Positions 6,946 through 43,255 of a DNA stretch of 64,000 bases are shown in pieces. The position numbers were made by a program, and so were the translations under genes. The notes under the pieces are model-generated. The model saw only the letters and a program-made list of their open reading frames with translations, did not search any database and was not told the DNA's origin. The DNA comes from a virus (Duplodnaviria > Caudoviricetes): IMG/VR virus record IMGVR_UViG_3300030090_004128, positions 66 to 64,065 of that record; one strand, written 5' to 3'. Each line of letters opens with the position of its first letter. Position 1 is the stretch's first letter.

Positions 6946-9514
6946 ACTTAATAGAAACGCCCCTAAAGCACAAGAAGGAATAGCAACTGTTGGCCAATGG
7001 GCTGAACACGTATGGGACGGTATAGTTGATACTATTCAAAATATTAATCTTAATGCACCGCAAATAGATTTTGGTGGAGGTGCACGTAAAGGTGGGGAAG
7101 GTCCAGGGGGTGAGTCCACATCTGAGAATGATCCGTATAGTGGTGATTACGTCCCTTCTAACAAAAACAACTACACCAACTTGAGTAAGGATGATCTTAT
7201 GTGGAGATATGGTAAGTATTATGATCTTCCTACACATTATAGTATGCTTGAAGATAACCCAAACCAAAGGAGAGGTGCAACTGGAAGACGTTTTGATTGG
7301 GCTAAACAGTTTCATACTCCAGAAAATGTAAATTTTGACTACGATGTAAAAAAAGGCAATCAAAAAAGCGGGAGAGATCAAGGTTTTAGAGTTGGTGATC
7401 AAATTACAAATAGACATCCTTATAATATTTCTGCTGTTCTTATGGACGCTCTCTATCAAGACCCTGAAGCTATACAAGCATTAAAAAGAAATTCATATCA
7501 ATTTGCACCCAGAACAGACGCTGTTACAAACTTAAGTAAAAAACATGGTTTACCAGATGATAATGTAATTGGGCATAATAGGAGATTTTTAAGAGATATT
7601 GATCAGAAAAAATTAGATAGACAAAACGAGAAACTTGCTCTTTCAAAATCAGGTAAAAAATTTAAAAACTTCAAGGATCACGCTTATGATGTAGACTTAA
7701 TGAATCAGTTACTGGGACCATATTTACCTAAAGGAATGACTATTGATAGCCAGACAGCTGACATGATAAATTACTTTATAGGTGACGATATGTTTACTGA
7801 TGCCGCAGCTGCTATGCATCCTGATATTTTCGATCCAGGAGTAGCAGGTGGAGGTCAAATGAAGGATGGAACATATTCTCCTTTTAGAACCAGAAAGGAT
7901 CCAAGTGCGGGGTTTGACAAGTTTATTAATGCTCCCCAAAACTACATTTATAATTTAGAAGCATCTGGTATGAGTCCAGACGACAGACCTAGCCAAGAAT
8001 GGCTACACATGCAACACTTATCTAACCAGGGTGCTAATGAGGGTATGGGTGGATATAATAAACATGAGCTTGCACAGATGTTGATGCAAGATAAAAACTT
8101 TCTTGCAAAGAACGCACTCAATAGAAATGAAATATATAGAATCTCTGAACTTGATAATTGGGGTGTTTTCCATAAAGGGGAAGATCCTAATGTTTTTAAA
8201 TTTGGTGTTTCATGGGATGATAAAAATCAAAAGTGGTACTCTGAAGGGACAAAAGATTGGTTAACTGACAAGCAAGCTGCTGCACTTGAAAGAAATATAA
8301 CTCAAAAATATATAGACGATTCTGGATGGCAACAGTTTGATCCACAGCATAATATAGAGCCAGTAACAATAGGACATGTTCCTTCTGGAAAAACAGATGA
8401 GGGGCAAATGCCAACTCCTGCTGGACCTTTAGGGTTTACAGATACTAGTGATGATCTTGAAACAGATATAAATGAATTTAATCAGGTTAATCAGGGTGTT
8501 GATGTGTCGGGAGGTACAGAAGGCACTGAAGGTGGTGGAGCTACTGAAACTACTGGTGGCGGTAGAGGAAAAAGTAGAGAAAGACGATCTATGGACGCTA
8601 TTTTAGATTCTGTAACAAGTGGAACACACGTAGTAACTGGAGAGAATTATAATGAGTCTGATTTAAAAAGAGATTCCGCAATTATAAAAAGAGAATTTGG
8701 AGACGATGCTTATAACACTTTATTAAAAGAGTTAATGAGTGTAGACACAGTAGAGCCTGGGTCTGAAGAGACCGTTGTTAATGAGACACCAACAGGAGGA
8801 GGAGGTATGCCTAAAAAAAGAAATTTATCTGCCGACTTTGTTGTAGATGATGAGGATAGTTTTTGGAATAGAAATCAAGGTGAAGAAGAAGAAATGTCTT
8901 TAGGGGAGTGGATATCAGCCATAAGAAACGATGACTGGGATGATGAGGATGATGAGGAAGAAGAAGAAGTGGAAGGGCAAGAATCTGGAGCTAGTTATAG
9001 CGGAGACTCTATGAGTGGATTTGCTGGCGACTCGGGACTTTCTGGTATCAATCCTATAAATAGAAAAGGTGGATATTCTCCTTTCCCTGGTCAAATGAGT
9101 GCTGAAGAAATGCAGAGGATGATGGCTAAAGGTGAAACTCCTGTATATAAACATGGAGGATTTGGTAAGGGTTTTGACATGAATAAAATGAAATTCTATA
9201 GAAAAGGGGGTAAACCAATTAAAGCTGAAGGCGGGGTTGATCTATCTCAGGTTGCTAGGGCTTTTAGTGGAGGACAAGGAGTTGGTGGATTTAATATCGC
9301 ACCTATTTATAATACAGCAGCTAAAGACCCTATACAGGCAGGAGACACTTATCTATCAATGAAAATAATGAGGTTAGAAAAAGAATTATCACAGTTGGAT
9401 CCAAATGATCCAGCTAATCAAGATACTATAGCTTCATTAATGCAGGAAATAGAAGAGTCTAAAGCTGAACTTATAGCAATTAGAGGTGGAGGTGTTGGTG
9501 CTTCAAGAGGATAA
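6911..9514 (+). CDS. Large acidic/Gly-rich protein, probable internal virion (cargo) protein
   Basis: 867 aa; KAQEG, YKHGG, YRKGG and KAEGG motifs shared with other putative cargo proteins; poly-D/E tract. Confidence 0.6.
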   Translation: MAYMNKRKKKYKLNRNAPKAQEGIATVGQWAEHVWDGIVDTIQNINLNAPQIDFGGGARKGGEGPGGESTSENDPYSGDYVPSNKNNYTNLSKDDLMWRYGKYYDLPTHYSMLEDNPNQRRGATGRRFDWAKQFHTPENVNFDYDVKKGNQKSGRDQGFRVGDQITNRHPYNISAVLMDALYQDPEAIQALKRNSYQFAPRTDAVTNLSKKHGLPDDNVIGHNRRFLRDIDQKKLDRQNEKLALSKSGKKFKNFKDHAYDVDLMNQLLGPYLPKGMTIDSQTADMINYFIGDDMFTDAAAAMHPDIFDPGVAGGGQMKDGTYSPFRTRKDPSAGFDKFINAPQNYIYNLEASGMSPDDRPSQEWLHMQHLSNQGANEGMGGYNKHELAQMLMQDKNFLAKNALNRNEIYRISELDNWGVFHKGEDPNVFKFGVSWDDKNQKWYSEGTKDWLTDKQAAALERNITQKYIDDSGWQQFDPQHNIEPVTIGHVPSGKTDEGQMPTPAGPLGFTDTSDDLETDINEFNQVNQGVDVSGGTEGTEGGGATETTGGGRGKSRERRSMDAILDSVTSGTHVVTGENYNESDLKRDSAIIKREFGDDAYNTLLKELMSVDTVEPGSEETVVNETPTGGGGMPKKRNLSADFVVDDEDSFWNRNQGEEEEMSLGEWISAIRNDDWDDEDDEEEEEVEGQESGASYSGDSMSGFAGDSGLSGINPINRKGGYSPFPGQMSAEEMQRMMAKGETPVYKHGGFGKGFDMNKMKFYRKGGKPIKAEGGVDLSQVARAFSGGQGVGGFNIAPIYNTAAKDPIQAGDTYLSMKIMRLEKELSQLDPNDPANQDTIASLMQEIEESKAELIAIRGGGVGASRG

Positions 9515-10380: not shown

Positions 10381-10625
10381 TACTTTTTACGTTTGTTAAT
10401 CTTTACGCCTCTAGCATTTCGATCACCAACAGTCCTAGTCTTATTGCCTCTATTCTTAGAAGGGTCTTCCATAATAAAGGATCCATCAGCCATATGAGAA
10501 ACGTCCTTACCACCCTTACCATATATACCGTTATCCCTACGTATTTTATTGAGTGTAGCACGCTTTTTTTTAGCCTTATCGCTCTTATGAAACTTATCGT
10601 ATTCTTCTTTGTAATTTCTTGGCAT
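10380..10625 (-). CDS. Small basic HNH-like protein (true start probably MPRNYKEEY at 10625)
   Basis: RNYKEEY...GKGGKDVSH...EDPSKNRG pattern; promoter element directly before this ATG. Confidence 0.65.
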   Translation of the reverse strand: MPRNYKEEYDKFHKSDKAKKKRATLNKIRRDNGIYGKGGKDVSHMADGSFIMEDPSKNRGNKTRTVGDRNARGVKINKRKK

Positions 10626-10629
10626 AGGG

Positions 10630-10637
10630 CAAATATA
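10630..10637 (-). promoter_or_regulatory. -7 promoter element, probable leaderless transcript
   Basis: TATATTTG-CCCT-ATG on the minus strand. Confidence 0.6.
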
Positions 10638-10639
10638 TA

Positions 10640-11040
10640 AAAAAATTGTGAGATAAGTGTAGGTTTGGGATAATAATGTAATGTAACAGGTGTGCAACCG
10701 ATCCCGAAACCGATATTTTTTAGGGGGGTGGGTGTGCATATCTATATGCAAACGATTTGAAACATCGATTTTTGACAACTATTATCTAAATACATATATA
10801 ATATATATACTACTACCTAAGTCCAAAATAAATATATATATATATACATACACCGAAAGTTTATTTTTATTTAGTTTTAATTATTGCACAAAAGATTTTA
10901 GCTATTAACTATGATTGTGTGAAGTGTGCGAAGGTAGGGGCTAATACCCTAACTAATTTTATTCATCATCTATTTAACATACTGAAACTATATTTATATA
11001 ATTTATTTAAAACCTTTTTCCTCAAGAGAATGAAAATAAT
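10640..11040. other. Non-coding strand-switch region, candidate genome terminus / pac region
   Basis: No credible ORF; G-tract GGGGGGTGGGTG, iterated AA(C)CGAT motifs, TGCATA-TCTA-TATGCA inverted repeat, TATA runs; early genes start just downstream. Confidence 0.4.
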
Positions 11041-11051
11041 TTACATTTTAC

Positions 11052-11083
11052 TAGGATATTAAAATTATTTAACATTATATTTG
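11052..11083 (+). promoter_or_regulatory. Early promoter P1
   Basis: TAGGA at -33 and TATATTTG at 11076-11083, followed by hairpin TGATACG-TATTAAG-TGTATCA. Confidence 0.65.
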
Positions 11084-11145
11084 TAGGACTGATACGTATT
11101 AAGTGTATCACTAACTAAACTAAATAACTAATAAATTATACAACT

Positions 11146-11487
11146 ATGAATAAAGAATTTGGAATATGTAGAAAATATAACAGAGATGTAGAAATAAAGC
11201 AACTACATAAAAGAAACAATACAAAAACTTTAAATAAATACTCAAAGATAGTAGATAAGATTGGAACAATAGGCGATACAGGGGGAACTCATCACGATAC
11301 TCATTACTATAATTATCAAGGTGCTTTGGAAGATTTTTATCTATTAGAGGATAGTATTAAAGATGGATTATATGAAGTATCTAAAGCTATAATGTGCAGA
11401 TTAGACAAGGCACTAATTGTATCAAAAACAATAAGCAAGATAGACAAACTTGAAGATATTCTAGATGAGAATATACAATACGGATAA
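11146..11487 (+). CDS. Early hypothetical protein
   Basis: ORF preceded by ACAACTATG start context. Confidence 0.7.
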   Translation: MNKEFGICRKYNRDVEIKQLHKRNNTKTLNKYSKIVDKIGTIGDTGGTHHDTHYYNYQGALEDFYLLEDSIKDGLYEVSKAIMCRLDKALIVSKTISKIDKLEDILDENIQYG

Positions 11488-11489
11488 AT

Positions 11490-11712
11490 TAAATTACTAA
11501 CTAATAAACTATAAAACTATGAACCCTGAGATACTAGAAAGGAATAGAATGCTACTTAATTTGGTAAACAAGGAGATCGCTATAACAAACAAACAAGAAG
11601 AAGACAAATATAATATGTTGGAAGAATTGAGAAGAAATTTAGAAAGGACAATATCAATGCAATTATTTCAAGATTAAATAAATTACTAACTAATAAACTA
11701 TAAAACTATGAA
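11490..11712 (+). repeat. 34-bp perfect direct repeat of a translation-initiation region
   Basis: TAAATTACTAACTAATAAACTATAAAACTATGAA at 11490-11523 and 11679-11712. Confidence 0.9.
11519..11677 (+). CDS. Small early protein, 52 aa (not in ORF track)
   Basis: MNPEILERNRMLL...QLFQD after TAAAACTATG. Confidence 0.65.
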   Translation: MNPEILERNRMLLNLVNKEIAITNKQEEDKYNMLEELRRNLERTISMQLFQD

Positions 11713-11860
11713 TGACTTAATAGAACAATTTGAAATGGAACAAGCTAAACTTAATACTAATGTTAGCGACACCATAAACACGATCAATAAAGCACTATCG
11801 CCATTTAGAAATAAAGAGGCACACGAAAAGATAAAGCTAATGATTGATCAATTAAAGTAG
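11708..11860 (+). CDS. Small early protein, 50 aa (not in ORF track)
   Basis: MNDLIEQFEME...IDQLK after TAAAACTATG. Confidence 0.65.
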   Translation: MNDLIEQFEMEQAKLNTNVSDTINTINKALSPFRNKEAHEKIKLMIDQLK

Positions 11861-11919
11861 AGTATTACTGATGATAGCTAATAGCTTGAAATAGGGGATA
11901 ATCTCCCCTATATAATACT
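11861..11919 (+). ncRNA. Type I hammerhead ribozyme
   Basis: AGTATTA (stem I), CTGATGA, T-AGCT-AAT-AGCT-T (stem II), GAAA, TAGGGGA-TAATC-TCCCCTA (stem III), TA (UH), TAATACT (stem I'). Confidence 0.8.
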
Positions 11920-11939
11920 AAAAACTAAAGATTATAACT

Positions 11940-12146
11940 ATGAAAGCATACATATTAAAACTGAAATACCTATTTATTAATAACATTGGAGAACTAGATT
12001 TTCATGGAGAAGATTTTACAACACTGCATATCGATATGATGTTCTCAGATAGGTCTTTCCAAGATGTTATATTAAATAACTATTACAACGGAACGAGTGT
12101 AATAGAAACATACGAAGAACTAGCCGAAGGATTTATTACTAACTAA
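11940..12146 (+). CDS. Early hypothetical protein
   Basis: ORF track; AACTATG context. Confidence 0.65.
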   Translation: MKAYILKLKYLFINNIGELDFHGEDFTTLHIDMMFSDRSFQDVILNNYYNGTSVIETYEELAEGFITN

Positions 12147-12160
12147 AAAACTATACAACT

Positions 12161-12460
12161 ATGAATTACAATGAAGTAAACAACTATCGTAAAATTAAAT
12201 TTAAATACATACCTGCAACAAATCATAGAGGATCAAGAATATCTGTATATGAAACTGCAAGATGGAATAGAGACAAGACAAGAAGAATATCTTTAAATAA
12301 TAGTAATGAATATAATACAATAGATGAACAAGTATTCAACTACTTAAAGGACAAAGGATTTAATATAATAGGCAAAGGATATGAAAATGAATATGGTTTA
12401 TTCTTTGTAGATAATTGGGGGGAAGATTATATTGAAGTAAACGGAACTAAAAAAATATAA
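12161..12460 (+). CDS. Early hypothetical protein
   Basis: KYIPATNHRGSRI motif, a pattern I recall from small phage early proteins. Confidence 0.7.
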   Translation: MNYNEVNNYRKIKFKYIPATNHRGSRISVYETARWNRDKTRRISLNNSNEYNTIDEQVFNYLKDKGFNIIGKGYENEYGLFFVDNWGEDYIEVNGTKKI

Positions 12461-12572
12461 TTATGAATGACAAGGAATTAAAAGAATGGGAAGAAGAATA
12501 TAAAGAAGTCCAACAAAATATTAAGTGGCTACTACCACTAATGATAACAATTATAATCTTAAATATAATACT

Positions 12573-12803
12573 ATGAATAATATAAAACTAACAGACAAGG
12601 AACTTGTATTAATAATAAATGCACTAACTGAAAAGATCAGATACAAAGGTGTACAGAAACTATTATCTAATATACACAATCAATTATTTACTAATGGTAC
12701 ACTAATGCTTGAAGAAGAAGAAAAAAAAACTAACAAAAGAAATTGGTTTGATTTTAACAAGGCACACCAAAAATATCTTGATAAATTAACAGATACAGAA
12801 TGA
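12573..12803 (+). CDS. Early hypothetical protein (start revised to ATG 12573)
   Basis: MNNIKLTDKELVLIINAL; ACTATG context. Confidence 0.6.
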   Translation: MNNIKLTDKELVLIINALTEKIRYKGVQKLLSNIHNQLFTNGTLMLEEEEKKTNKRNWFDFNKAHQKYLDKLTDTE

Positions 12804-12819
12804 AATAAAGTGAAAATAA

Positions 12820-12851
12820 TTTGCATATATGAAATATAATTCGTATGTTTG
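12820..12851 (+). promoter_or_regulatory. Early promoter P2, consensus Bacteroidota sigma70
   Basis: TTTG (12820-12823), 20 bp spacer, TATGTTTG (12844-12851). Confidence 0.8.
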
Positions 12852-12882
12852 TAAAACAATCAACAACTAAAACTAAATAATT

Positions 12883-13122
12883 ATGAAACTAAACACAAAA
12901 TACTTAACGGATCAATTAACTAATATACTAACTAACACCAAGAATTTTTTAATCTATGTATTGCTACATATAGTAATGTTATCATTTTTAATAGGTGGTG
13001 GATATATGATGATGATGATAGTGATAAATAAGTGGTGGATCATACTTGAATTTGTTTGTGGTACACTAATGTTAACCTCAGGTATTATAATGATCTTAAC
13101 TGCAATAGAAATAAATAAATAA
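12883..13122 (+). CDS. Early membrane protein (2 TM)
   Basis: Two long hydrophobic stretches. Confidence 0.65.
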   Translation: MKLNTKYLTDQLTNILTNTKNFLIYVLLHIVMLSFLIGGGYMMMMIVINKWWIILEFVCGTLMLTSGIIMILTAIEINK

Positions 13123-13142
13123 TAACTTAAAACTAAATAACT

Positions 13143-13445
13143 ATGAATGATAAAACTATAATTGTAAACAAAGATACTAATGTATGGACTTTAATAGACA
13201 CCAAGAATTTGATAACATTTGAAGAATTTAAAGAACAATTAATACATTATAAAAGTAGTATATCATGGATCGACAAGTACGGAACAAAACATTATATGTA
13301 TGGAAAAGATCCGATATTAAATGATGAGGGGGAAGTGGACTTTGAAATGGCTACAAAAATATGGCGAGAAAATGATAAGAAGTGTTATGATTGGATCAGA
13401 GAAAATAAATTGGACTTATTAATTAAAAAAAACAATGGTTGTTAG
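13143..13445 (+). CDS. Early hypothetical protein
   Basis: ORF track; AACTATG context. Confidence 0.65.
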   Translation: MNDKTIIVNKDTNVWTLIDTKNLITFEEFKEQLIHYKSSISWIDKYGTKHYMYGKDPILNDEGEVDFEMATKIWRENDKKCYDWIRENKLDLLIKKNNGC

Positions 13446-13455
13446 GTTTTTAGTT

Positions 13456-13531
13456 TGATAAGTAGGTTAAGATTAGGAGAAACCAATCTTGTAATTATAA
13501 GCTATATGTCGTGCTTATTCCCTACATATCA
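13456..13531 (+). ncRNA. Candidate three-way-junction structured RNA
   Basis: P1 TGATA-A-GTAGG/CCTAC-A-TATCA; P2 AAGATT(A)GG-AGAAA-CCAATCTT; P3 ATAAGC-TATATGTCGT-GCTTAT. Confidence 0.5.
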
Positions 13532-13576
13532 TAATCAAAACAACTAAAGTATTAACTAAATAAAAAAACTAAAACT

Positions 13577-13873
13577 ATGGAATTTAAAGTATTAAAACAA
13601 CAAATAACAACAAGAGGTGGTGGAATAGAGATAGACCTAACACCCTTTGGCTACAAATATATGAAAATGACTGCATATCAAAACTATTTAGGTGGTGGTA
13701 TGTTGGGAAGTATTGCTAATGATTGTACCCTTAGAGATTGGGAAGATGATCCTAAATTGGTAGATATAGCAAAACATTTGAGTATGTATTTTCATGGATT
13801 AACTAATCCTGATTGCGAATATGAGGGAATGAGTTTTGAAGATAGACAAAGTTTGCCGACAAGTGCTTATTAG
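13577..13873 (+). CDS. Early hypothetical protein
   Basis: MTAYQNYLGGGMLG motif; AAAACTAAAACTATG context. Confidence 0.7.
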   Translation: MEFKVLKQQITTRGGGIEIDLTPFGYKYMKMTAYQNYLGGGMLGSIANDCTLRDWEDDPKLVDIAKHLSMYFHGLTNPDCEYEGMSFEDRQSLPTSAY

Positions 13874-13999
13874 ATATAGCTATCCTTTGATACAAATAGC
13901 TACTAACATTAAGGAAGTAGGAGAAGTAGAAGACAAGAGATATATATTTTTTATATAAAAATTATATAACTAACATAGTTATCTACTAATAATGATCGG

Positions 14000-14028
14000 A
14001 AGGTACAAGAAAAAAATGAGAATGTCAA
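14000..14028 (-). promoter_or_regulatory. Antisense-oriented sigma70-like promoter
   Basis: Minus strand TTGACA (14028-14023), 17 bp spacer, TACCTT (14005-14000); fires into a non-coding AT-rich gap. Confidence 0.45.
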
Positions 14029-14052
14029 GTATTAACTAAAAAAAATAAAACT

Positions 14053-14364
14053 ATGAACACAAACACATTAAACAAACATTTAGAAAATAGATCAACAAAA
14101 GATATAACTAAAATGATAAATGAAATAACAGATATTTTTGATAAATATGATGAAGAATATAATATAAGACACCAAAATTTTTATCTTTTAAAGATTAATA
14201 AAAATGATAGGAATTGTAAAGAGAAAATAGTTTATGAGGATAAATTATTTAAAATGAGCAACATAAGAGATATGTTAAGAAGTATGTTTGAAGAAAGATA
14301 TTTTGATCGAATACTTAAAACAAGAACAGAGAACTTATTAAAGAAAGTAGAATTATTAGATTAA
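14053..14364 (+). CDS. Early hypothetical protein
   Basis: ORF track; TAAAACTATG. Confidence 0.65.
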   Translation: MNTNTLNKHLENRSTKDITKMINEITDIFDKYDEEYNIRHQNFYLLKINKNDRNCKEKIVYEDKLFKMSNIRDMLRSMFEERYFDRILKTRTENLLKKVELLD

Positions 14365-14498
14365 CAAAAAAAAAATAAAACTATGGAAAAAGAATTTGAA
14401 TATATAAAATGTAGTGAGTGTTCTTTTGACTTATTAGATGATAACAAAAAATTATTAGAACACTATTGTATTAATGATGAACTTAAATAAATAAAACT

Positions 14499-31666: not shown

Positions 31667-34600
31667 TTACTGTGTTTTTTTATCATCTTCTCTCGCCCAT
31701 ACCGTCATCATATATTGAACTTGAGGATCTGTCACTATACCCTCTTCTACAAATAAATCTTCTAAAGTTTGGTATCTAATCGGATTACCTACAGCCTCTT
31801 TTTGAGCTTCATAAACTATAAACGCTGCTGTCATCTTTTTACCCTGCTTAAAATCTATAACAGCTTGTTGAATATCAGATTCGTATTCCCCAAAATTCCA
31901 ATCCATAAAAATTTTTCTAGCTATTCTGAGATCTACCTGATCCCTATTCCATAATTTTTGATCTATCACTGGATCATTACCAAGCCTACCTTCAATCTGT
32001 CTATGAGTTTCAGCTATAACTTCTTGAGCTAACAAATAATAATCATCTCTAGCATCATTACCAAAACGCAATTTTTTACCATTTTTATCTACCATAGCAC
32101 CTGAGTTAGGATCTCTTCTTAAAGCAAATCTTTCAGATGCCGCCTTATAAGCTAAATTTAGGTTAGCTTGGAACCTCTCCTCTGTTTCTCTTATGTGGTC
32201 AGCTTCAGCTTGTAATTGTGTTTTTTGATTTCTAAGAAGATCAATTTCTCCAATATATCTTTTTGTTACTGGACCAAAAGCGTCATTTAAAAACACATTC
32301 ATTTGATTACCGTACTTCTCTTTTTCATACTCATTTAAACCTCCAGTGGCAGCCACATAACTATGATTAACTACAGCGTTCCATGGACTCCTATCCATAT
32401 TAGTAAGCATAGAGCCTATTGCTGACTTTATAGTTGTAACACCGAAACCTCCTTCTTTTAAACCCATTTTATCAAATCTCTTAGATAAATCCATTAACCA
32501 CCTATCTTCATATTTATCATAATCACCCTCATATTGAGTATATCCGTTAGCTGCCTCATTGTAATCATTCCATACAGGTCTATTGTAAAAAGCATCATAG
32601 TTACCTAAAACTTTTAAAGATACATTTAAAAGAGGGTTTGTTGATATTAGATCCCTAGGGTTACCACCACCAGCTGGTATAGCTTTCTGTAGTATTCTAC
32701 CGTAAGAATTTTTCTCATCACCTCTACCCCAAGGAGTATATGATGAAAAATCTTTAGACTGAATAAAGTAATCACTACCTGTTATGTGTTTAAATGCTAA
32801 CTCTTCCAAAGGTAATCTAAAAACATTTAATCTAGCATCACTAGGTATCTTTAAATATCTAGGAGTCACAATTCTATTGTCAGACAACTGATTTTTTATT
32901 TCAGCTATCCTTTCATCTCTTTCTTCTCCAATCTGCATGCTTTCAGCTATTTTTAATTGCTCTTGTAGAGCCACTTCCTTTTCTTGACTAACTATATCTG
33001 TAACTTTACCAGGTAATATTACACAGTGGTAATTTTCTCGATCATAAGGGCTAATATGATTTATATAGTATCTTCTATTTTTATATAGTTTTTCTCTTAT
33101 CTTTTTCTCTAATTCCCTATTTCCACTTGCTACAGCCTTATCTAAAGCATCTTGTAATCTTTTTTCTTCATCTTCGTCTAAAATATCAAAATGCTGTAAA
33201 TTATAAGCCATTAAACCAAGACCAAAAACTGAAGCCCACTGTGCTGTATCCCAAAGAAATTGCTTAGGGTTTTCACTAACATACCTAACACTCTTATCAA
33301 ACACTTGTGCCGCAGCATTAAGGTAAGCAAAGCCTAAAGAATCAAGAAATTTAATCGTTCTACCTCCATTATTAAAGTTAGCATAGTCAACTGCATTAGC
33401 TACAGCTCTTTTTTTAATAGCTATAAGGTCTTCTCCTGTGGGTTCTTGCCCATCATTTTTCTCTTTATATTCTTGTGTGTATTTTTTAATCCACCTTCTA
33501 GTATTAGCAAGTCTACCTGTCATTTCAGAAGTTGAGTTCATCTTCGCAAAAAAGTTTTTTATAGCGTTTTTATACACCTTTACGGTATTAGGATTTACAT
33601 AAGGAGCGTCATCACCATACAACTTAGACATTTGTTCTCTAGCTGCCTTTTCTCTAGCACGCTCTTCATTGAGAGTGTTTTCAGGGTCTGACATTATCTC
33701 CCTTGCTCTTTTTGTTAACGCCACTTCGTCTATAGCTAAATCAGATGAATAATCCATTAATCCATATCTAGTTAAAAACTCTAAAGATCCCCCAAGCATT
33801 TTGTATTCTTGACTAAGAGGTCCATTTGTTCCCGCATCCCAAAGTACAGCGGCCCAGTCAGTAAACGCCATCCCAAATTTAGCACCTAAACCTAGGAAGG
33901 GTACAGGATTGGTGGCCATACCATTATAAGTATCTGTAAACATAACTTGCTGAGCGAAATCATAAAATACATTAGCAACAAAGAAAAATGGTGCACCAAC
34001 ACCAGTAGCGAATACTTTAAGTGCACTACCACTCCACCTCAAAGGTTTAGTAATTAATTTAAGTTTATCACCAGCAGGAACCATTTCTCTAGGGTGAGCA
34101 AATAAACTTTGGTAAGCTGCATTTTTCATAGCAAATCTAACCTTTTTACCACCTTCATTGTAGCTCATTTCAACGTATCCAGGTTTTACTTTTTCCCCAT
34201 CTTTTAATATATACCCTATATCTTCTATTGTCATTTGAAGACCATTAACATACTCAAATCCTTTTTTAGTTACTTCAGATATTATATTATATATACCTTT
34301 TCTAACTTCATTCTCGGCTCTTAATTTAGCTCCTGTAGCTAGCGTGTTCTGCAATAACTTAACTGGATCCATGTATAAAACACTATCACTACCTTGCTTT
34401 AACATTTTTAAAGGAGACTCTAAATGATCGCCCCTATCTGAACGACCTGATTTTCTTTGCTCATTTAAATTTCTCTCTGCAAATATTACATAGTCAACAA
34501 ATTTTCTTGGATTATATTTAAAGTTTTTAAGCTCATTGTAAGTTGCTTCATCTATTAATCCTGCTTCAAAATTTCTTTTTAACTCATTACTATATTCTTG

Positions 34601-37600
34601 AAATAGTTTATCTGTAGTTTCTCTAATAATATTAAATCCATCACCCTGTTCTCTCTTCATATTGTCAATCAATTCTTGAGCAAGCTCCTTATTTATCATA
34701 ACTCTACCCTCACCTTTAGGGTTTTTAACATCTGGATGTTTCATCCTCCAAGGATGAACCTTTTTCTTAGTAGTTGGATTTACTATTGATTTGATTCCAG
34801 GCTTCATTCTAACAACAATCTCTTTACCATCTTTATCTTTAGTAAGATACTCTAATTCATATTTGGTGCTCTCCTTACCCCATCTTTTGCCATCGTATTT
34901 TTTATCTCTAATTTTACCTTTACTAATTCTAACATTAGGATTGTCTTTATATATATTTTCTAATTGAGCTTCAGCTTGTTTAATTTGATCTTCTACAGCA
35001 GACCTTTCTTCTTTTGTTTTTACACTACTATATTTTTTAACTAAAGAATTTAAGTTTTTAATAATAGCATCCGCAGCAACTTTTTGAGCGTCAGATAAAT
35101 TATCAAGCTCTATTATTCTTTCAAGTGTAGATAGTTGACCTACCAGTTTTATTTGCTTTGAAGATAAAGCTCCCCATATTTTTTTATTAGCCTGATCTAT
35201 AAGTTCTTTAGCTGTACCTGGAACCGTTAACCATAAGGTTATAGAAGCAAGTGCGTTAGAAGCTGTCTCCCCCAAGTTCATATCTTTACCTATATTTCTA
35301 ATAGATCTCTTTATTCTATATTTAGTATCTACCGTTGCCTCTTTTAACTTAACAAACGCATCGTCTAAAGATCTTTTGAAATCTGCAAGCCTTCCAAAGA
35401 AATTATCTTTACCTCTAGAGAATGCTGCATCTTGATCCTTCTGTAATTCCTCTAAAACCTCTGAGTAATCTGAATCCGTCCACCCCTCCAGGTCTATCTC
35501 AGAATTTAAAGCGTCAATCATCTCAAGAGTTTGTTTTTCCCTCATCTCTTTTAAACGAGCCTCCTCCTCTTCAAGTTTAGCTGCCTCTTCTTCTGTTAAT
35601 TCAGTTTCACCAGAGACACCAGCTTCTTTAGGATTAAACAGTCCTTCTTGATTAGATAAAAAGTTTTTAAATAATTCTCTTATTTTAACTTCTTGATCTG
35701 GTATAAAATTATCCCCATCAGTTTGAGCTTTCTTTAAGTAGTCTATAGCGGCATCTACAGCTTTAGCCACACTAGAAGTAGCCCTAAGAACAACAGAAGC
35801 TGTTTTAAGAGCCGCTCTAATAATAGGTATAGACATAAACGGATCTGCATAAGCATTTCCACCCAAATCTTTATATATCTGATCTAATTTATCTGCAAAA
35901 TCTGTTAAGATTTGAAAACGCTGAACGCTTCTACTAGAGTATTCATCTCCTGTTCTGAGATCTGAGATGTCCTTGGCGTTGTCCCCGCTATTAATAGCTC
36001 TTTGCCTTCTGGCAAGCTCTCTATTGATGTCTGTTTCAAACGACTTTTCTTGTCTTGTAGTGGTTTCGTATTCCCCATTTGTAAAAACTTTTGTGTTAAT
36101 ATATCCATTTTCTACGGTATTAAAAATATCTTCACCGTATTTTTCTTGTATTTCTTTTATTCCTTTATCTACACCCTCAATCCATTTTGATTCAAAATCC
36201 TTAACGTTACCTACCGTCAATCCCTCACCCATAGGCTCCATTAAATATTCAGGAACAAACTGCATTGATAAACCTATAACTTCTCCTTTTTGATTGTAAT
36301 TTACAGTCATTCCTTCTACTCCATTAGGACCAAAATGTTCATTAGCAAACATTCTAGCATCAGTTAAAGTCATAGGAGAGTCAAACTCTATTCTTCTAAA
36401 AGGTCTAGCGTTAGGATCTTGCTTTGTTGTTACTTTAGATATAAATACAGACTCTTGTTCGTTATTGATAGCTGTGTTTAATAACTCATCAAATAAAATA
36501 GCAAGATCTGTTCCAGTATCAACAAGTATTTCTAGATTTATAGTGTCTTCCACTTGATTCATATATATACCTTCCGATTGGTATGGTCTACCCATAGCAC
36601 CTAACTGAGCAACTATAGCATCTAAATTTTGTAATGCTTGATCCATTCTTACAGCTCCCTGCATTGTTTCCGCTATAACAGACGCTATCTCTTCTTCTGT
36701 AGCATTTCTTTCTAAAGCATTTTGAACAGCTCTGGCTGTAGCACTATATATTCTTCTTTTTTGATCTGGACTTGTATTCCCTATAAAAGTGCTAGCACCT
36801 ATCATTATTCTATCTGTTATCTTAGCAGAATTAACAGCATTTTCCATAGTTGCTTGATCTTTAGCTCTCACATCCCCAGTAAATCCAGATTCGTCATATA
36901 TTTGTTTTTCTATAAACCACATAGCGGCTTGTAGGTCGTCAGGATTTAAATTTAATTGTCTAGCAGCTAAAGCGTATACACTTTGTGCAAAAGAAAAATC
37001 TTTACTACCCACTGTTGTTTCTTGAGATTGTCTTCTTCTAAATGGTACAAACCCACCTTGAGAATATAATATCCTTCTCATATTTCTAGCAGCCCAAACA
37101 TCAATAGTAGCACTTCTGTCTCTTAGAGATAAGTTATTGTAAAACTGTCCTGTTTTGTTAGCTGGATTATTAGATAACCAATTACCATATAAAACTCTAA
37201 CAATACCTGAAGTAACTACTGGCAAACCAAATGATTTTCCATTTTTCTTTTTTATTCCAGCTACAACATCTTTGTCAGAAGAAGCTTGTTTTATAAGCTC
37301 TTTAGCTTTAATTACAGCTTTTTTACCGACTCCAAAAACACCTTGATCATACTGAGCCATTATGTTTTTTACTTTATTGTCGTATATCTCTAGGGCTTCA
37401 TCAAACTTACCCTCTGAGTAAGATTTTAAAACTTCAGTAGATTTTCTGAAATTAATTTGAGGTGGTGCTTGTGGAGATGTAACCCCTAATAATTCAAAGA
37501 ATATTGATGCATTTCCACCAAACTTCTGTTGTATTAAGTTTTTTGTTTTACTATACCAACCTGTAGCTTTCTTTAAGTCTATTTTAGAACTATTAGCATT

Positions 37601-40600
37601 AAAATCCTGTACAAGAAGTTGAGAGGCTAATTCTATTTTTTGTTGCTCTGACAATCCTTGGAAGATAGGAGCCCCACTAAAGTTAAAGGGAAGCTTTTTT
37701 ATTACAGGTTTTCCATTCTTTAAAACTACAAATCCTCCATCAAATAATATTTGCATAGGATCTGATAAGCTAGGATCATTTTTCATGTCAACATTATTAT
37801 GTTGATCTACTTTTGCTTGTAAGTTATCTATTTGTTTAAGTTCAGGTTTAGTATAATTACCTCTAACAACTTTAGGGTTAACTCTTAATTTAGCTATTTT
37901 ATATATTTCTTTAGCTTCAAGTGTATTATATTGATCTGGATATCTTTCTTGTAAAGCTTCAAAGAATTTAGCTCCAGTTATTTTATTAGCTATAGCTTCC
38001 TCAGCAAATTTAACAACCCCATCATTACTAAATAAAAATCTTCTTTTCAACATTTCTATAGACTTATCAGAGCCAACCTCATTAAAAGCTTCAGCAACTG
38101 AAAACTCCCCACTCAACAGCATTTCAGCTCTAAGAGAACCATCTACTATTCTGTCTGATTTTATAGCATCAATAGCTTTATCAAAAGCGACAGAAAGAGT
38201 TTGTCCCGCTTTTAAGCCTGCTTTTAACGTTTTTAAGAACAGTTCCCACGCCACTGGTCCTAGACCCATAGTTACATCCATATACAGGTTTTTGCCCTTA
38301 TTTCGATTTATTCTATCTAATTCTGAGTCAATACCCCTAATTGTTCTATCTACAAGGCTTTCTGTGTTTTCTGGAGATTTTATATTCGGATCAACATCAG
38401 AATCATGAGCATTTGTAGAAGCATTTATTAAATCTATTACACCAGCTAGCTCTTCTGTTATTTGATCATTAGCCTCCATTAGGTCTATATTCGCAGGACC
38501 CTCCATAGATAGCTTCAAAGTTTTTATAGCTTCTTTTTTAGTTCTTCCAATAGGGGTTTTAGTTGTTAACTCTATCCACTCTTGCTTCCCATATCTTTTA
38601 GCTATTAAAAATGGTTTACCATTAACAGTTCCCTCATATACTTTTTTAGATCTATTATATTTAAAAGGAGTATCTTGAACCACTTCTGTTTCTGTGTCTG
38701 TAGACACTTCTGTTGTAGATGGTTGTTGGAATACAAATTGATCAGGAAGTAAACCTATTTTCTGGTCTGCAAAAGGCCTATCTTGAGGTCTCACATAATC
38801 AGGATCTCCTTTCTGAGGTATACTCCCATCTTCTCTTCTTAAACCTTGATTAAAGTTAACCCATGAGTTTTGACCTCTAGTTTCTGTTGTCATAGCTCTT
38901 CTAGCATCATGACTAAACATTCTAGAGTGATTAAGCCAAGCATTTTCCTCCCCTTTAATTCCAAATCCATTACCTAACTCTGTATGACCAAAGAAATCAT
39001 GAACAGCTCTAAATAAGTCATTAACCAACAAAGGATTACCGTTAACATCTTGAAATTCTGTAGGTTGAAGTAAGGGGTTTTCTGATCTCATTTGATCTGT
39101 TATTTGGCCTTGACCAAAACCAGCCTCTGTTCCAAATATATATAAATGCTTATTATCTCTAACATCTTTTATCATCTCGTCACTATTAGCGTAAGGCTCT
39201 CCTTTACCATTATAAATTTCAATGGTGTACCCAGCATTTACAAGTGATTGATATTGCATTTGAGTTTCATTAGCTAAAGCTGTGTAAGCTTTCTGAACTT
39301 TAGGGTCTTGTGGATTATGCTCCATAGACTCATAGGCATCAGCTATATTTTTAGAGTTTTCTTCATTAATCTCAGTAACTGGAACAGCATCAGAATGTTG
39401 TATTCCTAATTGAGGTGAGTTAGTGTTTATATAGTCTGACGTTATCTGTGATGTTTCTGGGTTGGGGTCATTAAATAGTCTATTACCAGGATTCACCGAG
39501 CTTATGCTTCCAGCAGAACTCCTTACCGACTCATCTTCAAATAAAGTTAGTTGTCTACCACCAGAAGAAGGCATGCCAATATCTTCGTCACGTTCATCTT
39601 TAACTGTAGGCAAACCACCAGGACCCTCTCCAATAGGAATAATAGGACCTCCAGGAGCATCTCCTCCATCATCTCCTCCGTCATCTCCATTTATTCCACT
39701 TAAGTGATCTGGAGTTTCTCCAACCATAGTATCAAAGTCTTCATCTCCCCATAGTGTTAATTGCTCTCCCTGTGGTGATTTTTTATATTCATCCATAACA
39801 CCCAAAAACTCTTGAACTAATTGAGTATCTTCAGGATTTAGAGTGCCAGAGTCCAGCATATCTTGGAAATTCTGCTCTATGCTATTAGCTGTTAAAGTTG
39901 TAAAAGCTGTAGATAACCCTACACAAATAATAGCTGTAGTCATTAACTTATTTATTCTCTCATCTTTTGAGTGACCAACTGTAGCCATTAAAGCTTCTTC
40001 CCAGTTAAAGCCCATATTAGTTAAGTTCTCAACAAACTCACCTGAATACTCAGCTAATAACTCAGCACCACCACCCGCAAGTATTCTTGGGGGTAGGGTA
40101 GCAACTTTAACTCCTTTTTTACCAAAGTTTCTGTATAATGTTAATAACCCTCTAGTTACAGGAGTTCTTTTAAATAAAGAGTTCATTACTTGTTCTGTTG
40201 CTCCCTCAGCAGCACCCATTCTCCATGTAGCCTGATCACCTGATGTCATCTCAAAAGCAACAGCCCCTTTAACTACATTCTCACTAAACTCCCACCAAAA
40301 TGTACCCACAGGAGTGCTTTTAGCAGCAATCATAGCGTTTTTAATCATAGGCACTTTGGTAAGAGTTTTTAAACCAGCACCAGCTAAAGGCATAGTAGCA
40401 ATCATTTCAATCATAATAGGAAGTGTAGTACCTACACCTTGAGCTACCATATCATTCAAGCTTATTTCCCCCGCTACCTTTTGTTCATCTGTTAACTCTA
40501 TTCCGTAAGCATTAGCTATGTCATCATAGTAGTTAATCATATCATCCTCACTATGAACATGTCTTTTATGTACAGCGTGACCAAAAGATTCTGACATTTG

Positions 40601-43255
40601 TCTCAAGAACAAGCCTGTTCCAGTTTTCTCTGCCCATTCTTTTCCTGGATCAACATTAAATGTTAATACATTAGATATAGCTACTAACTGAGTTTGATTT
40701 TCATAGTATCTACCTTTAAAATTCTTCAGCATTTCTATCATAAACTCAGCATCTTCTTTATTAGATCCCTTTGACCAAGCACCTACATTTTTAGCCCACA
40801 TCATAGGTATAGACTTATCTATAGATCTTAATTGCTGTCTTAATCCAATAACACCCACACTTCTTTCAGCCTCGCTATCGAACTGTTCTCTTAATGCTTT
40901 TGATCCTCCACCAATACCCAAACTCCAAATAGAACTTGTATCACCAGAGGCTTCTTGTATAAAACTATACATTTCTTCTAGTGTCATTTTTTGACCACTA
41001 GGAAGTGTTATCTTTTCATTCTTCCATATATCCTGATTCATTAATTCAGTAGAATATAGACCATCTTGAGCCCTCATTAGTTGATCTACAAATGCACCGT
41101 AATCATCAGCTTGATTTAAAGCTTGCATAAAACTAGTCTCCGCAGAAACTATTTGTTGCTGTAGAATTTTATCCTCCTCCGTAGCTATAGGATCTTCCAT
41201 CCTTTCTCCTGATTCTGTGAACATTTCTGTTCCCCTTTCATACCCTCTCTTTTCTCTATTCTCCTCTATCTTAGCTTTAATAACAGCTACGTCCTGCATT
41301 AGTTTAGTAGACTGCTCAACATATTCATCTTCCTCCATTTTTTCTTTTTTGGCCTCTAATTTTTGCAGTTGGAGATTTTTTTCTTTTAAAGCATTATTTA
41401 ATTTTACCTGAGTTGTATAGGTTTCTTCATTTTGCCAGTCCGCTTGAGAAGCAAGAATATTAATATCATTAACTCTGGTTTTTTGGAAATCTTTATAAAT
41501 ATTCATAAAGACTTTATCTTGAAGCATTTCTTCAGGGTTTTTAAATTTCACACCCTTGCTAGCCTGATACTTGTCTAAAAGCTTTTTAGCCTCTGTGTCA
41601 ACAGAAAATTCATTACTTAAATCCTGTTGTATCTCGCTTTTTAATTCACCTATAACTAAATTCATTTGGTAACTTTCAGACCTATCAATTTTAGAATTTA
41701 TCTGATCATTACTACTATTAAAAAAAGCTACCCTATCTTCATGAGTTTTTAAACCACCATAAGCTGTTTTAACATCATTGACACCATGTTTATTGGAGGT
41801 TGTTAACATTTGTGCTGTTAACTTAGTTTTAGCCTCTCTTACAGCATTTATTTGATTTGTTAAATCCTCATACTGAGTCCTTTGCTCCTCACTAAGTGTA
41901 TTATAATTAACATTCCCAAGTGTAGTTCTTTCATCTACGCCCTCTTCATATACAGCTATTGGTCTGTAGTATTTATATTTTTTCTCTTCTTTATATACGT
42001 GACCACCACCAACAAGCTCACTCCTTTTATTTAATAGGCTAGCCATATGATTATCCATATTTAAAATAGTCTCATACTGAGATAAGCCCAACTCATCTAC
42101 AGATTGGAATGATTGATTTTCATCGCCTGTCTGAAGACCTGGCTCTATACCATATTCTGATAAAATCTCTTCATTTTCTCCACCACCGATAGGAACTTCA
42201 TGAAAGAATGTGTTAGTATCAGGATTAACAGCAGATAATAAATCTTTTCCATTTTCAGATATAGATGTTGTTAAAGGTATTTGCATGCCCTCATAATCTA
42301 TAAACTGACCCTCTTCGACACCCTCTAATAATAAGTTAAAGTTTTCAGGATTTTCACTATATATTTGTGCTGCTTTATAAAAATTAAAATCACCTTCCTG
42401 ACCGTAGAATTGTTCAAAGTTTTGGTTAAACTCTACATTTTTTAATTCTGCTTGAATCTCAGGATTATTTCTCGACTTCTCTCTTTTTTGAAGATCATGT
42501 TGATTTTGTATATCTATCTTTAGATCCGCCATCACATTAAAAGGAACCTCAGCAGCATCCACAGGTGATCCATTTTTAGTAAAGGTTTTTAATATATAGT
42601 CATAATCCCAAATGTCTTCTTCGGCATTTATATCCACCTCTGTGTTATTTTGTTCTTGAGGAACGATAGCTCCATCTTGAGCTGTAAAATATTTGTCTGT
42701 TGGAAGTTCTACTATCTTAGACGCTGGAGATGTTGTCATTTTACCTCCAGGTTTTAATATACCCTGATACCCACCATCTGCATAAACGTGTATAGGATAA
42801 CCTTGTCTTCCTTCTAGTAATCTAGGTTCTTTGCCTTTAAAATTAAGAGTAGCTGAGGTGCCAGGTTTTGCACCTTCTAAACCTTTATATAATTCTTCAT
42901 CTGAACTTAAATTAAGATCAGTTACAAAGGCTCCATCTTTAGCTGTAAAACTCTTATTATTTTCGCTTATTTCTAATTGCTCCGATTCTCCAGTTTCCGA
43001 TTCTAATAAACCATTTGCCGAATCTTTTTTTTTTAAGGCGTAATGATTAACTACACTTGTTATGTCACTATCACTAGGTTTATATTTAGTTAGTGCACCG
43101 TAAATGTCTTTAACCATGGTTTCATAATCACCATCGTACTGGGCAAAGATCGAATCAATCTCAACTTGAGTTAACCTATAGTTAGGTTTAAACTTCTTGT
43201 AGAAATCTGTTACGAATCTAATAGCGTTTTTATCTTTTTGATATACTACTGCCAT
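31667..43255 (-). CDS. Giant polyvalent virion/ejected protein (3862 aa)
   Basis: HDFFGH metallo-domain, TIDVW/LQAAMW domain, SAM-lyase-like segment and LPD38-like C-terminus; lies downstream of cargo genes; no RNAP DxDxD catalytic motif recognised. Confidence 0.8.
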   Translation of the reverse strand: MAVVYQKDKNAIRFVTDFYKKFKPNYRLTQVEIDSIFAQYDGDYETMVKDIYGALTKYKPSDSDITSVVNHYALKKKDSANGLLESETGESEQLEISENNKSFTAKDGAFVTDLNLSSDEELYKGLEGAKPGTSATLNFKGKEPRLLEGRQGYPIHVYADGGYQGILKPGGKMTTSPASKIVELPTDKYFTAQDGAIVPQEQNNTEVDINAEEDIWDYDYILKTFTKNGSPVDAAEVPFNVMADLKIDIQNQHDLQKREKSRNNPEIQAELKNVEFNQNFEQFYGQEGDFNFYKAAQIYSENPENFNLLLEGVEEGQFIDYEGMQIPLTTSISENGKDLLSAVNPDTNTFFHEVPIGGGENEEILSEYGIEPGLQTGDENQSFQSVDELGLSQYETILNMDNHMASLLNKRSELVGGGHVYKEEKKYKYYRPIAVYEEGVDERTTLGNVNYNTLSEEQRTQYEDLTNQINAVREAKTKLTAQMLTTSNKHGVNDVKTAYGGLKTHEDRVAFFNSSNDQINSKIDRSESYQMNLVIGELKSEIQQDLSNEFSVDTEAKKLLDKYQASKGVKFKNPEEMLQDKVFMNIYKDFQKTRVNDINILASQADWQNEETYTTQVKLNNALKEKNLQLQKLEAKKEKMEEDEYVEQSTKLMQDVAVIKAKIEENREKRGYERGTEMFTESGERMEDPIATEEDKILQQQIVSAETSFMQALNQADDYGAFVDQLMRAQDGLYSTELMNQDIWKNEKITLPSGQKMTLEEMYSFIQEASGDTSSIWSLGIGGGSKALREQFDSEAERSVGVIGLRQQLRSIDKSIPMMWAKNVGAWSKGSNKEDAEFMIEMLKNFKGRYYENQTQLVAISNVLTFNVDPGKEWAEKTGTGLFLRQMSESFGHAVHKRHVHSEDDMINYYDDIANAYGIELTDEQKVAGEISLNDMVAQGVGTTLPIMIEMIATMPLAGAGLKTLTKVPMIKNAMIAAKSTPVGTFWWEFSENVVKGAVAFEMTSGDQATWRMGAAEGATEQVMNSLFKRTPVTRGLLTLYRNFGKKGVKVATLPPRILAGGGAELLAEYSGEFVENLTNMGFNWEEALMATVGHSKDERINKLMTTAIICVGLSTAFTTLTANSIEQNFQDMLDSGTLNPEDTQLVQEFLGVMDEYKKSPQGEQLTLWGDEDFDTMVGETPDHLSGINGDDGGDDGGDAPGGPIIPIGEGPGGLPTVKDERDEDIGMPSSGGRQLTLFEDESVRSSAGSISSVNPGNRLFNDPNPETSQITSDYINTNSPQLGIQHSDAVPVTEINEENSKNIADAYESMEHNPQDPKVQKAYTALANETQMQYQSLVNAGYTIEIYNGKGEPYANSDEMIKDVRDNKHLYIFGTEAGFGQGQITDQMRSENPLLQPTEFQDVNGNPLLVNDLFRAVHDFFGHTELGNGFGIKGEENAWLNHSRMFSHDARRAMTTETRGQNSWVNFNQGLRREDGSIPQKGDPDYVRPQDRPFADQKIGLLPDQFVFQQPSTTEVSTDTETEVVQDTPFKYNRSKKVYEGTVNGKPFLIAKRYGKQEWIELTTKTPIGRTKKEAIKTLKLSMEGPANIDLMEANDQITEELAGVIDLINASTNAHDSDVDPNIKSPENTESLVDRTIRGIDSELDRINRNKGKNLYMDVTMGLGPVAWELFLKTLKAGLKAGQTLSVAFDKAIDAIKSDRIVDGSLRAEMLLSGEFSVAEAFNEVGSDKSIEMLKRRFLFSNDGVVKFAEEAIANKITGAKFFEALQERYPDQYNTLEAKEIYKIAKLRVNPKVVRGNYTKPELKQIDNLQAKVDQHNNVDMKNDPSLSDPMQILFDGGFVVLKNGKPVIKKLPFNFSGAPIFQGLSEQQKIELASQLLVQDFNANSSKIDLKKATGWYSKTKNLIQQKFGGNASIFFELLGVTSPQAPPQINFRKSTEVLKSYSEGKFDEALEIYDNKVKNIMAQYDQGVFGVGKKAVIKAKELIKQASSDKDVVAGIKKKNGKSFGLPVVTSGIVRVLYGNWLSNNPANKTGQFYNNLSLRDRSATIDVWAARNMRRILYSQGGFVPFRRRQSQETTVGSKDFSFAQSVYALAARQLNLNPDDLQAAMWFIEKQIYDESGFTGDVRAKDQATMENAVNSAKITDRIMIGASTFIGNTSPDQKRRIYSATARAVQNALERNATEEEIASVIAETMQGAVRMDQALQNLDAIVAQLGAMGRPYQSEGIYMNQVEDTINLEILVDTGTDLAILFDELLNTAINNEQESVFISKVTTKQDPNARPFRRIEFDSPMTLTDARMFANEHFGPNGVEGMTVNYNQKGEVIGLSMQFVPEYLMEPMGEGLTVGNVKDFESKWIEGVDKGIKEIQEKYGEDIFNTVENGYINTKVFTNGEYETTTRQEKSFETDINRELARRQRAINSGDNAKDISDLRTGDEYSSRSVQRFQILTDFADKLDQIYKDLGGNAYADPFMSIPIIRAALKTASVVLRATSSVAKAVDAAIDYLKKAQTDGDNFIPDQEVKIRELFKNFLSNQEGLFNPKEAGVSGETELTEEEAAKLEEEEARLKEMREKQTLEMIDALNSEIDLEGWTDSDYSEVLEELQKDQDAAFSRGKDNFFGRLADFKRSLDDAFVKLKEATVDTKYRIKRSIRNIGKDMNLGETASNALASITLWLTVPGTAKELIDQANKKIWGALSSKQIKLVGQLSTLERIIELDNLSDAQKVAADAIIKNLNSLVKKYSSVKTKEERSAVEDQIKQAEAQLENIYKDNPNVRISKGKIRDKKYDGKRWGKESTKYELEYLTKDKDGKEIVVRMKPGIKSIVNPTTKKKVHPWRMKHPDVKNPKGEGRVMINKELAQELIDNMKREQGDGFNIIRETTDKLFQEYSNELKRNFEAGLIDEATYNELKNFKYNPRKFVDYVIFAERNLNEQRKSGRSDRGDHLESPLKMLKQGSDSVLYMDPVKLLQNTLATGAKLRAENEVRKGIYNIISEVTKKGFEYVNGLQMTIEDIGYILKDGEKVKPGYVEMSYNEGGKKVRFAMKNAAYQSLFAHPREMVPAGDKLKLITKPLRWSGSALKVFATGVGAPFFFVANVFYDFAQQVMFTDTYNGMATNPVPFLGLGAKFGMAFTDWAAVLWDAGTNGPLSQEYKMLGGSLEFLTRYGLMDYSSDLAIDEVALTKRAREIMSDPENTLNEERAREKAAREQMSKLYGDDAPYVNPNTVKVYKNAIKNFFAKMNSTSEMTGRLANTRRWIKKYTQEYKEKNDGQEPTGEDLIAIKKRAVANAVDYANFNNGGRTIKFLDSLGFAYLNAAAQVFDKSVRYVSENPKQFLWDTAQWASVFGLGLMAYNLQHFDILDEDEEKRLQDALDKAVASGNRELEKKIREKLYKNRRYYINHISPYDRENYHCVILPGKVTDIVSQEKEVALQEQLKIAESMQIGEERDERIAEIKNQLSDNRIVTPRYLKIPSDARLNVFRLPLEELAFKHITGSDYFIQSKDFSSYTPWGRGDEKNSYGRILQKAIPAGGGNPRDLISTNPLLNVSLKVLGNYDAFYNRPVWNDYNEAANGYTQYEGDYDKYEDRWLMDLSKRFDKMGLKEGGFGVTTIKSAIGSMLTNMDRSPWNAVVNHSYVAATGGLNEYEKEKYGNQMNVFLNDAFGPVTKRYIGEIDLLRNQKTQLQAEADHIRETEERFQANLNLAYKAASERFALRRDPNSGAMVDKNGKKLRFGNDARDDYYLLAQEVIAETHRQIEGRLGNDPVIDQKLWNRDQVDLRIARKIFMDWNFGEYESDIQQAVIDFKQGKKMTAAFIVYEAQKEAVGNPIRYQTLEDLFVEEGIVTDPQVQYMMTVWAREDDKKTQ
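43025..43034 (-). other. A10 slippery run (candidate -1 frameshift / transcriptional slippage site)
   Basis: TTA AAA AAA AAA GAT; the -1 frame reads RFGKWFIRIGNWRIGAIRNKRK-stop (TAA 42957-42959). Confidence 0.55.

Follow-up and report, generated by a model that had tools for sequence, protein, structure and literature searches.

The element at positions 11861-11919 on the plus strand of the 64,000-nt stretch of viral DNA analysed here (the window) is, as judged from its sequence, very probably a real self-cleaving hammerhead ribozyme located just upstream of a small phage gene. The virus record that contains the window comprises 64,065 bases and is complete-looking, with a CheckV estimate of 100. 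The element is likely to be a type I hammerhead of the U10.1.U11.1 form of a common phage family, cutting co-transcriptionally to uncouple the downstream RNA. The motif, its statistical significance and its membership in a covarying family were observed, as was its conservation in front of several different genes, and from these we infer cleavage, its site and its effect. Both the hammerhead class and the U.U variant are already known; the results provide good support for a hammerhead in a phage lineage where the library models detect none.

The 59 nt of the element were read in type I order, and the reading of the sequence together with the minimum free energy (MFE) fold confirmed the original prediction that all core elements are present and in order. 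The 5' strand of stem I (AGUAUUA, 11861-11867) is paired with the 3' strand (UAAUACU, 11913-11919), and all seven pairs are kept in the eight lineage sequences described below. The core residues C3-U4-G5-A6-U7-G8-A9 (CUGAUGA, 11868-11874) follow and are alike in the same eight sequences except for N7 (U/C) in one of them (L231). Stem-loop II (11875-11887) opens with U10.1 (11875) facing U11.1 (11887) and continues with the arms AGCU (11876-11879) and AGCU (11883-11886) on either side of AAU (11880-11882). Residues G12-A13-A14 and A15.1 (GAAA, 11888-11891) are invariant in both the 26-member and the lineage alignments. The stem III hairpin with U16.1 (11892-11911) is formed by UAGGGGA (11892-11898) and UCCCCUA (11904-11910) closing the loop UAAUC, and is extended by pairing of A15.1 (11891) with U16.1 (11911). 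Residue H17 is the A at 11912, so that the cleavage triplet is AUA (11910-11912), fitting N-U-H with H not G. Hammerhead numbering places the predicted cleavage between 11912 and 11913, with the predicted 5'-OH end of the downstream RNA at U11913.

Both the MFE and the centroid structure of 11855-11925 (71 nt) were exactly the three-way junction with both ends of the element in stem I. The fold had a free energy of -16.6 kcal/mol and a z-score of -2.86, and only one of 200 shuffled sequences was as stable. In a 151-nt context the MFE structure differed, with the 5' strand of stem I pairing with the downstream coding sequence (frequency 0.001), an alternative of little weight if the hammerhead folds co-transcriptionally. 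All three forward frames encounter a stop codon within 11861-11919, and no ORF of 30 aa or more covers the element on either strand.

Both strands of the window were scanned with a descriptor comprising CUGANGA, a stem II hairpin in which a 10.1/11.1 mismatch was optional, GAAA, stem III, UH and stem I, in the type I and type III topologies. The sole match was 11861-11919. When 300 random 64-kb sequences were generated with a second-order Markov model trained on the window and scanned, a loose match was present in 11, and a match as strong as that in the window (stem I at least 6, stem II at least 4 and stem III at least 6) in none. This chance estimate, combined with the covariance model and the compensatory changes among relatives presented below, supports the proposed hammerhead identity.

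A comparison with the Rfam hammerhead models, put forward in the original prediction as a check, gave no match at the gathering threshold in the whole window, none at E≤10 in the 401 nt and 81 nt surrounding the element, and none with RF00163 over the genome at E≤10. The Hammerhead_1 (RF00163), Hammerhead_3 (RF00008) and Hammerhead_HH9 (RF02275) models represent the same class as the window element and did not match it even at E≤10 with 81 nt. The RAGATH-1 hammerhead (RF03152) is also type I, and its stem I is short and resembles that of the window element in sequence, but its consensus has a hairpin upstream and a stem II that is reduced; this model gave no match in the window at gathering, nor at E≤10 in the 401 and 81 nt. 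Matches to KatA thermometer, Termite-leu, SNORD100, mir-12 and PK1, with 13-15 bits and far under the cut-offs, were dismissed.

The same models were applied to a control locus (L120) containing seven hammerheads identified with the descriptor, five of which have the canonical G10.1-C11.1 pair. None of the seven reached gathering. At E≤10, five gave sub-threshold scores of 19.8-26.7 bits with Hammerhead_3, HH9 or RAGATH-1-hammerhead, while two (7987-8058 with G-C and 8593-8658 with U.U) had no match to any Rfam hammerhead model. For these relatives RF00008 and RF02275 gave sub-threshold scores of 16-27 bits, and the G-C hammerheads matched the ribozyme part of RF03152 with 20.6-25.5 bits. Twelve more hammerhead-bearing loci gave no hammerhead match at gathering, and overall the gathering threshold of the Rfam 15 hammerhead models was reached by none tested in L120, L153, L128 and 24 other loci, the highest sub-threshold score among the tested phage hammerheads being 26.7 bits against a cut-off of 48.5. 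Since the models also miss the control hammerheads, five of them canonical G-C, the failure to detect the window element says little. The results indicate that Rfam hammerhead models miss the whole group of these phage ribozymes and, consequently, that automated annotation undercounts them.

The standard pair opening stem II, whether G10.1-C11.1 or other, is absent from the element, with U11875 and U11887 in its place. The U.U closing stem II was correctly recognized in the original prediction as a deviation, and is a published natural variant: section 8 of Perreault 2011 (PMC3088659) describes natural U10.1-U11.1 hammerheads and U-U as the best tolerated mismatch, and the variants of that section and of the Figure 5 legend open stem II with U.U as does the window element. 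G10.1-C11.1 is the best conserved stem pair of the hammerhead class, and since U.U removes the guanine at 10.1 the activity may be lower. The register of the mismatch is fixed by two paralogues (the first copy in L002 and the copy in L229) which agree with the window element in stem I and in loop II (UAAUA) but have G-C at this pair. The predicted 3-nt loop of stem II holds for the structure as drawn by the MFE fold, with 4 bp, whereas the relatives favour the mismatch followed by three pairs (AGC/GCU) and the 5-nt loop UAAUA, so that on comparison of the sequences stem-loop II is better read in the latter way. The 13-nt stem-loop II unit is common to all 26 type I hammerheads of the family alignment (A2). 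With regard to the tertiary contact of loop II with stem I, which hammerheads need for fast cleavage at low Mg2+, the U at position 1 and the A at position 3 of loop II, as well as the G-C at the sixth pair of stem I, match invariant or nearly invariant positions of this family (n = 26); the final base of loop II is A in the window element and U in at least 90% of the 26 members.

The L229 paralogue, which has the G10.1-C11.1 pair and a stem III unlike that of the window element, is located after a homologue of the ORF upstream of the window element. Since both follow the homologous ORF, the two hammerheads occupy the same genomic position, and from this comparison the U.U and G-C forms appear to be interchangeable at one position. 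The U.U variant receives a single sentence in Perreault 2011 (PMC3088659); the present results show it to be common in phage contigs.

The variant was sought in IMG/VR contigs with the pattern CUGAUGA-U-NGC...GCN-U-GAAA, which matched at least 111 loci, with 118 core matches among the matches listed. Of the 118 listed, 18 are type I hammerheads complete in all elements, whose stems I and III are quite unlike one another, dozens more of those listed are type III hammerheads (by eye and with the descriptor), and approximately 45 are one near-identical, probably coding, sequence without hammerhead stems. The U.U form is therefore frequent in the phage contigs searched, in the type I and type III topologies, when read with the approximately 45 non-hammerhead matches in mind. 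Hammerheads with G10.1-C11.1, which lie outside what the pattern requested, are also numerous in these loci, and in the loci listed there are at least 45 distinct strict type I hammerheads (24 G-C and 21 U.U). When the U10.1-U11.1 pattern matches were inspected by eye for a pseudoknot joining loop II to flanking sequence, no consistent partner was seen, and this candidate was dropped. A separate loose pattern gave 111 loci with few weak descriptor matches and was used as background sequence only.

Alignment A2 was assembled from 26 of these type I hammerheads that have the 13-nt stem-loop II in common, excluding the window and its relative L002. In this alignment 97.8% of the cells are paired, a value partly built in since the selecting script demanded pairing, and both partners are altered in 13 of the 16 pairs. 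A covariance model (R1) built from A2 was run on the whole window with filters off and gave 54.6 bits for 11862-11918 with a rough E-value of 1.4e-12; the next match in the window scored 16.6 bits and was without the core. The score indicates that the window element belongs to the A2 phage hammerhead family. Of the 45 distinct type I hammerheads in the loci listed, 38 terminate no more than 60 nt away from an ATG that opens an ORF, the median distance being 25 nt, compared to 12% of 874 random positions; for the window element the distance is 20 nt.

The original prediction looked to core conservation in related phages as evidence, and such conservation was found, with seven lineage relatives keeping the core unchanged apart from N7. 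Three lineage patterns, which left the stem II partners, stem III and the 3' strand of stem I unspecified, matched nine sites in seven loci outside the window, every one of which is a full hammerhead. The loci are L002 (two copies), L226, L227 (identical in sequence to the second copy of L002), L228, L229, L230 and L231. Model R1 added two further copies, one that is incomplete and lies at the end of L227, and a second one in L230 missed by the patterns. The eight distinct lineage sequences, the window included, were aligned in 60 columns (A4). The core is invariant except for N7 (U or C), and 96.6% of the cells are paired, the unpaired cells being five U.U only. Seven pairs change on both sides; none of 500 shuffles reached these values, and controls in which the alignment was slid were 31-49% paired. 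The changes on both sides include four of the eight pairs of stem III, which is wholly different among paralogues yet always paired.

The 10.2-11.2 pair is A-U in the window and L226 and U-A in L002, L228 and L231. The hammerheads of the window, L002, L226 and L228 differ from one another only in this pair and in loop III (UAAUC, CAAUGU or UAAAUU), and their flanks are unrelated. Alignment by blastn showed that the block common to the window and L002 begins exactly at 11861, and that L228 has only 11852-11945 in common with the window. L226, otherwise 96-97% identical, is without window positions 11945-12140, which include the 68-aa gene downstream of the element, and the hammerhead of L226 therefore precedes a homologue of the window's next gene. 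The loss corresponds to a deletion between two of the start-context motifs described below. Overall, nine lineage copies (the eight aligned and the first copy in L002) precede eight different proteins, 16-20 nt before the ATG, and the leaders behind the nine copies are similar to each other. The first copy in L002 (8866-9003) is a G10.1-C11.1 paralogue with an insert of approximately 80 nt in stem III, and with stem I and loop II UAAUA as in the window. The difference between the window and L002 is exactly one unit comprised of a hammerhead and a 64-aa gene, and in L002 the last seven codons and the stop codon of the 64-aa gene are inside the next hammerhead. A blastn search with 10500-13500 against a GenBank phage collection gave no match.

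The element starts, as originally described, on the base following the TAG (11858-11860) of a 50-aa ORF on the plus strand (P0001, 11708-11860). It is followed by a 20-nt A/U-rich leader (11920-11939) and a 68-aa ORF (P0002, 11940-12146, plus strand) with a 91% identical homologue in the L002/L003 phage, the only one found in a search for related loci with the 68-aa protein. The distance of 27 nt from the predicted 11912/11913 site to the ATG at 11940 was also correctly calculated. Neither small ORF matched a family in PHROGs or Pfam. No Shine-Dalgarno-like run was seen in the leader, which ends in the recurrent start context of the phage (..AUAACUAUG). This context, AACTATAAAACTATG and variants ending in AAAACTATG, precedes many small plus-strand ORFs between 11134 and 25180, also with no Shine-Dalgarno-like run seen; with up to three mismatches 37 matches were found compared to 8.9 ± 2.8 expected, and none of 100 shuffles gave as many.

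The element is within a plus-strand run of small ORFs at approximately 10.5-24 kb, followed by a PDDEXK-like protein and a primase/helicase, whereas the structural genes (P22-like portal and SU10-like capsid protein) are on the opposite strand. The phage is podovirus-like, roughly 64 kb, with the element on its replication side. Also on the minus strand is an ORF of 3862 aa (31667-43255), very large for a 64-kb phage, with two weak PHROG matches of unknown function. A scan of 10400-14400 for promoter-like and terminator-like sites listed none where the element lies.

The predicted mechanism is as follows. During synthesis of the multi-gene transcript the 59-nt element would fold into the three-way junction and, through internal transesterification, cut itself after A11912. 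This would leave the upstream RNA carrying the 50-aa ORF with a 2',3'-cyclic phosphate end, and the downstream RNA would begin with a 5'-OH at U11913 followed by a 27-nt unstructured leader to the ATG at which the 68-aa ORF starts. Cleavage would probably serve to uncouple the RNA of the 68-aa gene from the upstream RNA and provide it with a fixed, context-independent 5' end which, in turn, may give the downstream gene stability and translation behaviour of its own. In bacterial RNA, 5'-OH ends slow 5'-end-dependent decay. The idea that cleavage exposes the initiation region was not borne out. The leader is unpaired in the uncleaved fold and in the cleaved product (product fold -0.4 kcal/mol), and since it lies outside the hammerhead fold before cleavage and is unstructured after, cleavage does not unmask the start site; changed RNA stability or changed coupling to upstream translation is more likely.

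Self-processing of an early polycistron, as originally suggested, agrees with the processing of long or multi-gene phage transcripts proposed for phage hammerheads (PMC3088659; PMC6765202), and this role fits the setting in that ORFs on the same strand are present on both sides and the scan lists neither a promoter-like nor a terminator-like site there. The "early" part of the suggestion derives from gene order and layout alone, by which the region may be early. According to a review, what hammerheads encoded in bacterial and phage genomes do biologically is still undetermined (PMC6765202).

It is unlikely that the element is a hammerhead derivative with no useful cleavage, kept either because it links exchangeable gene cassettes through homologous recombination or because a protein binds it as a structured target. 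The U.U in place of the best conserved stem pair would suit such a derivative, yet U.U is a natural and tolerated variant as reported in PMC3088659, and the U.U and G-C forms are found at the same genomic position. A linker is also consistent with the location of the element exactly at the borders of mosaic blocks in at least four gene contexts, with stem I and loop II nearly identical among lineage paralogues as recombination or gene conversion would give, and with the loss of the 68-aa gene from L226 by deletion between two repeated start motifs. Recombination, however, needs no compensatory changes, whereas seven pairs of the lineage alignment change on both sides around a fixed core and stem III is always paired in spite of being wholly different between paralogues.

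It is highly improbable that the conserved residues represent a sigma-70-type promoter for the 68-aa gene with the hairpin in the spacer. TTGAAA (11886-11891) followed by 17 nt and TATATA, or by 19 nt and TATAAT, can be read in the sequence 25-30 nt upstream of the ATG; however, the site is not listed by the promoter scan, the AT-rich region has no excess of such sites (29 found versus 31.1 expected), and in L002 the first hexamer is ATGAAA with a spacer longer by 1 nt. Moreover, GAAA and the UAU/GUC triplet are separated by widely varying distances across the family, stem III with U16.1 being 11-37 nt among the matches listed, which argues against a promoter since its spacer would not tolerate such variation, and the positions conserved are those of the hammerhead core with stems that covary. 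It is extremely improbable that stem III, rich in G+C, acts as an intrinsic terminator or attenuator hairpin, or that the fold arose by chance in DNA of high AT content. Stem III is a stable hairpin of eight pairs, four of them G-C, but no T-run follows and the terminator scan lists nothing at the element, and the 54.6 bits obtained with R1 and the lack of a match as strong in 300 random sequences are contrary to chance.

A self-cleaving type I hammerhead that uncouples the downstream RNA remains the preferred reading, to which a tentative extension may be added: it is possible, if somewhat doubtful, that the hammerhead and its 16-20-nt leader form a portable gene-cassette junction providing the same 5'-OH leader for every gene and, in addition, a homologous crossover point. 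The crossover role is suggested by the near identity of stem I, loop II and leader among the copies. The one-unit difference between the window and L002, the absence of the 68-aa gene from L226, the eight different genes behind the copies and the closure of all reading frames fit a cassette junction. If this were true, early genes would be swapped, gained and lost between related phages at the hammerhead, and the junction would be a natural counterpart of a ribozyme insulator. RiboJ, a synthetic ribozyme insulator and engineered part, is reportedly self-cleaving directly upstream of an ORF and thereby sets where the translated RNA begins. The presence of the element before eight different genes with a fixed leader would make it a convenient system in which to study the effect of cleavage on mRNA stability and translation.

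The type I hammerheads of phages and prophages described in Perreault 2011 (PMC3088659) have the same core and topology as the window element and the same proposed role in the processing of long transcripts. They likewise flank single genes or short gene blocks in phage DNA, with neighbour genes that are not constant. The lineage has a stem I (AGUAUUA/UAAUACU) and a loop II (UAAUA) of its own, with no difference in kind from the hammerheads described there. Hammerheads in the 5' UTRs of linear RNA viruses, which enable translation (PMC13725137), are also located directly upstream of an ORF and set the 5' end; these systems are from eukaryotic RNA viruses, and an effect on translation is not reported for phage hammerheads in the literature compared.

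Several arrangements of hammerheads were observed in the other loci. Ten strict type I copies are arrayed in L188 (2016-8607), each a few nucleotides before a gene start with AGGAGG and ATG. The seven copies of L120 (7213-10034), six of them strict type I, are within 2.8 kb, mix G-C and U.U and are alike in stem I and loop II. In L194 a Twister-P5 ribozyme scoring 48 bits, above gathering, is located between two type III U10.1.U11.1 hammerheads (7406-7456, 7859-7921 and 10584-10633). Short type I-like U.U motifs with only four pairs in stem III were found on the minus strands of L134 (1181-1229), L164 (5106-5154) and L202 (8764-8812), the motif in L134 being closely followed by four tRNA genes, also encoded on that strand.
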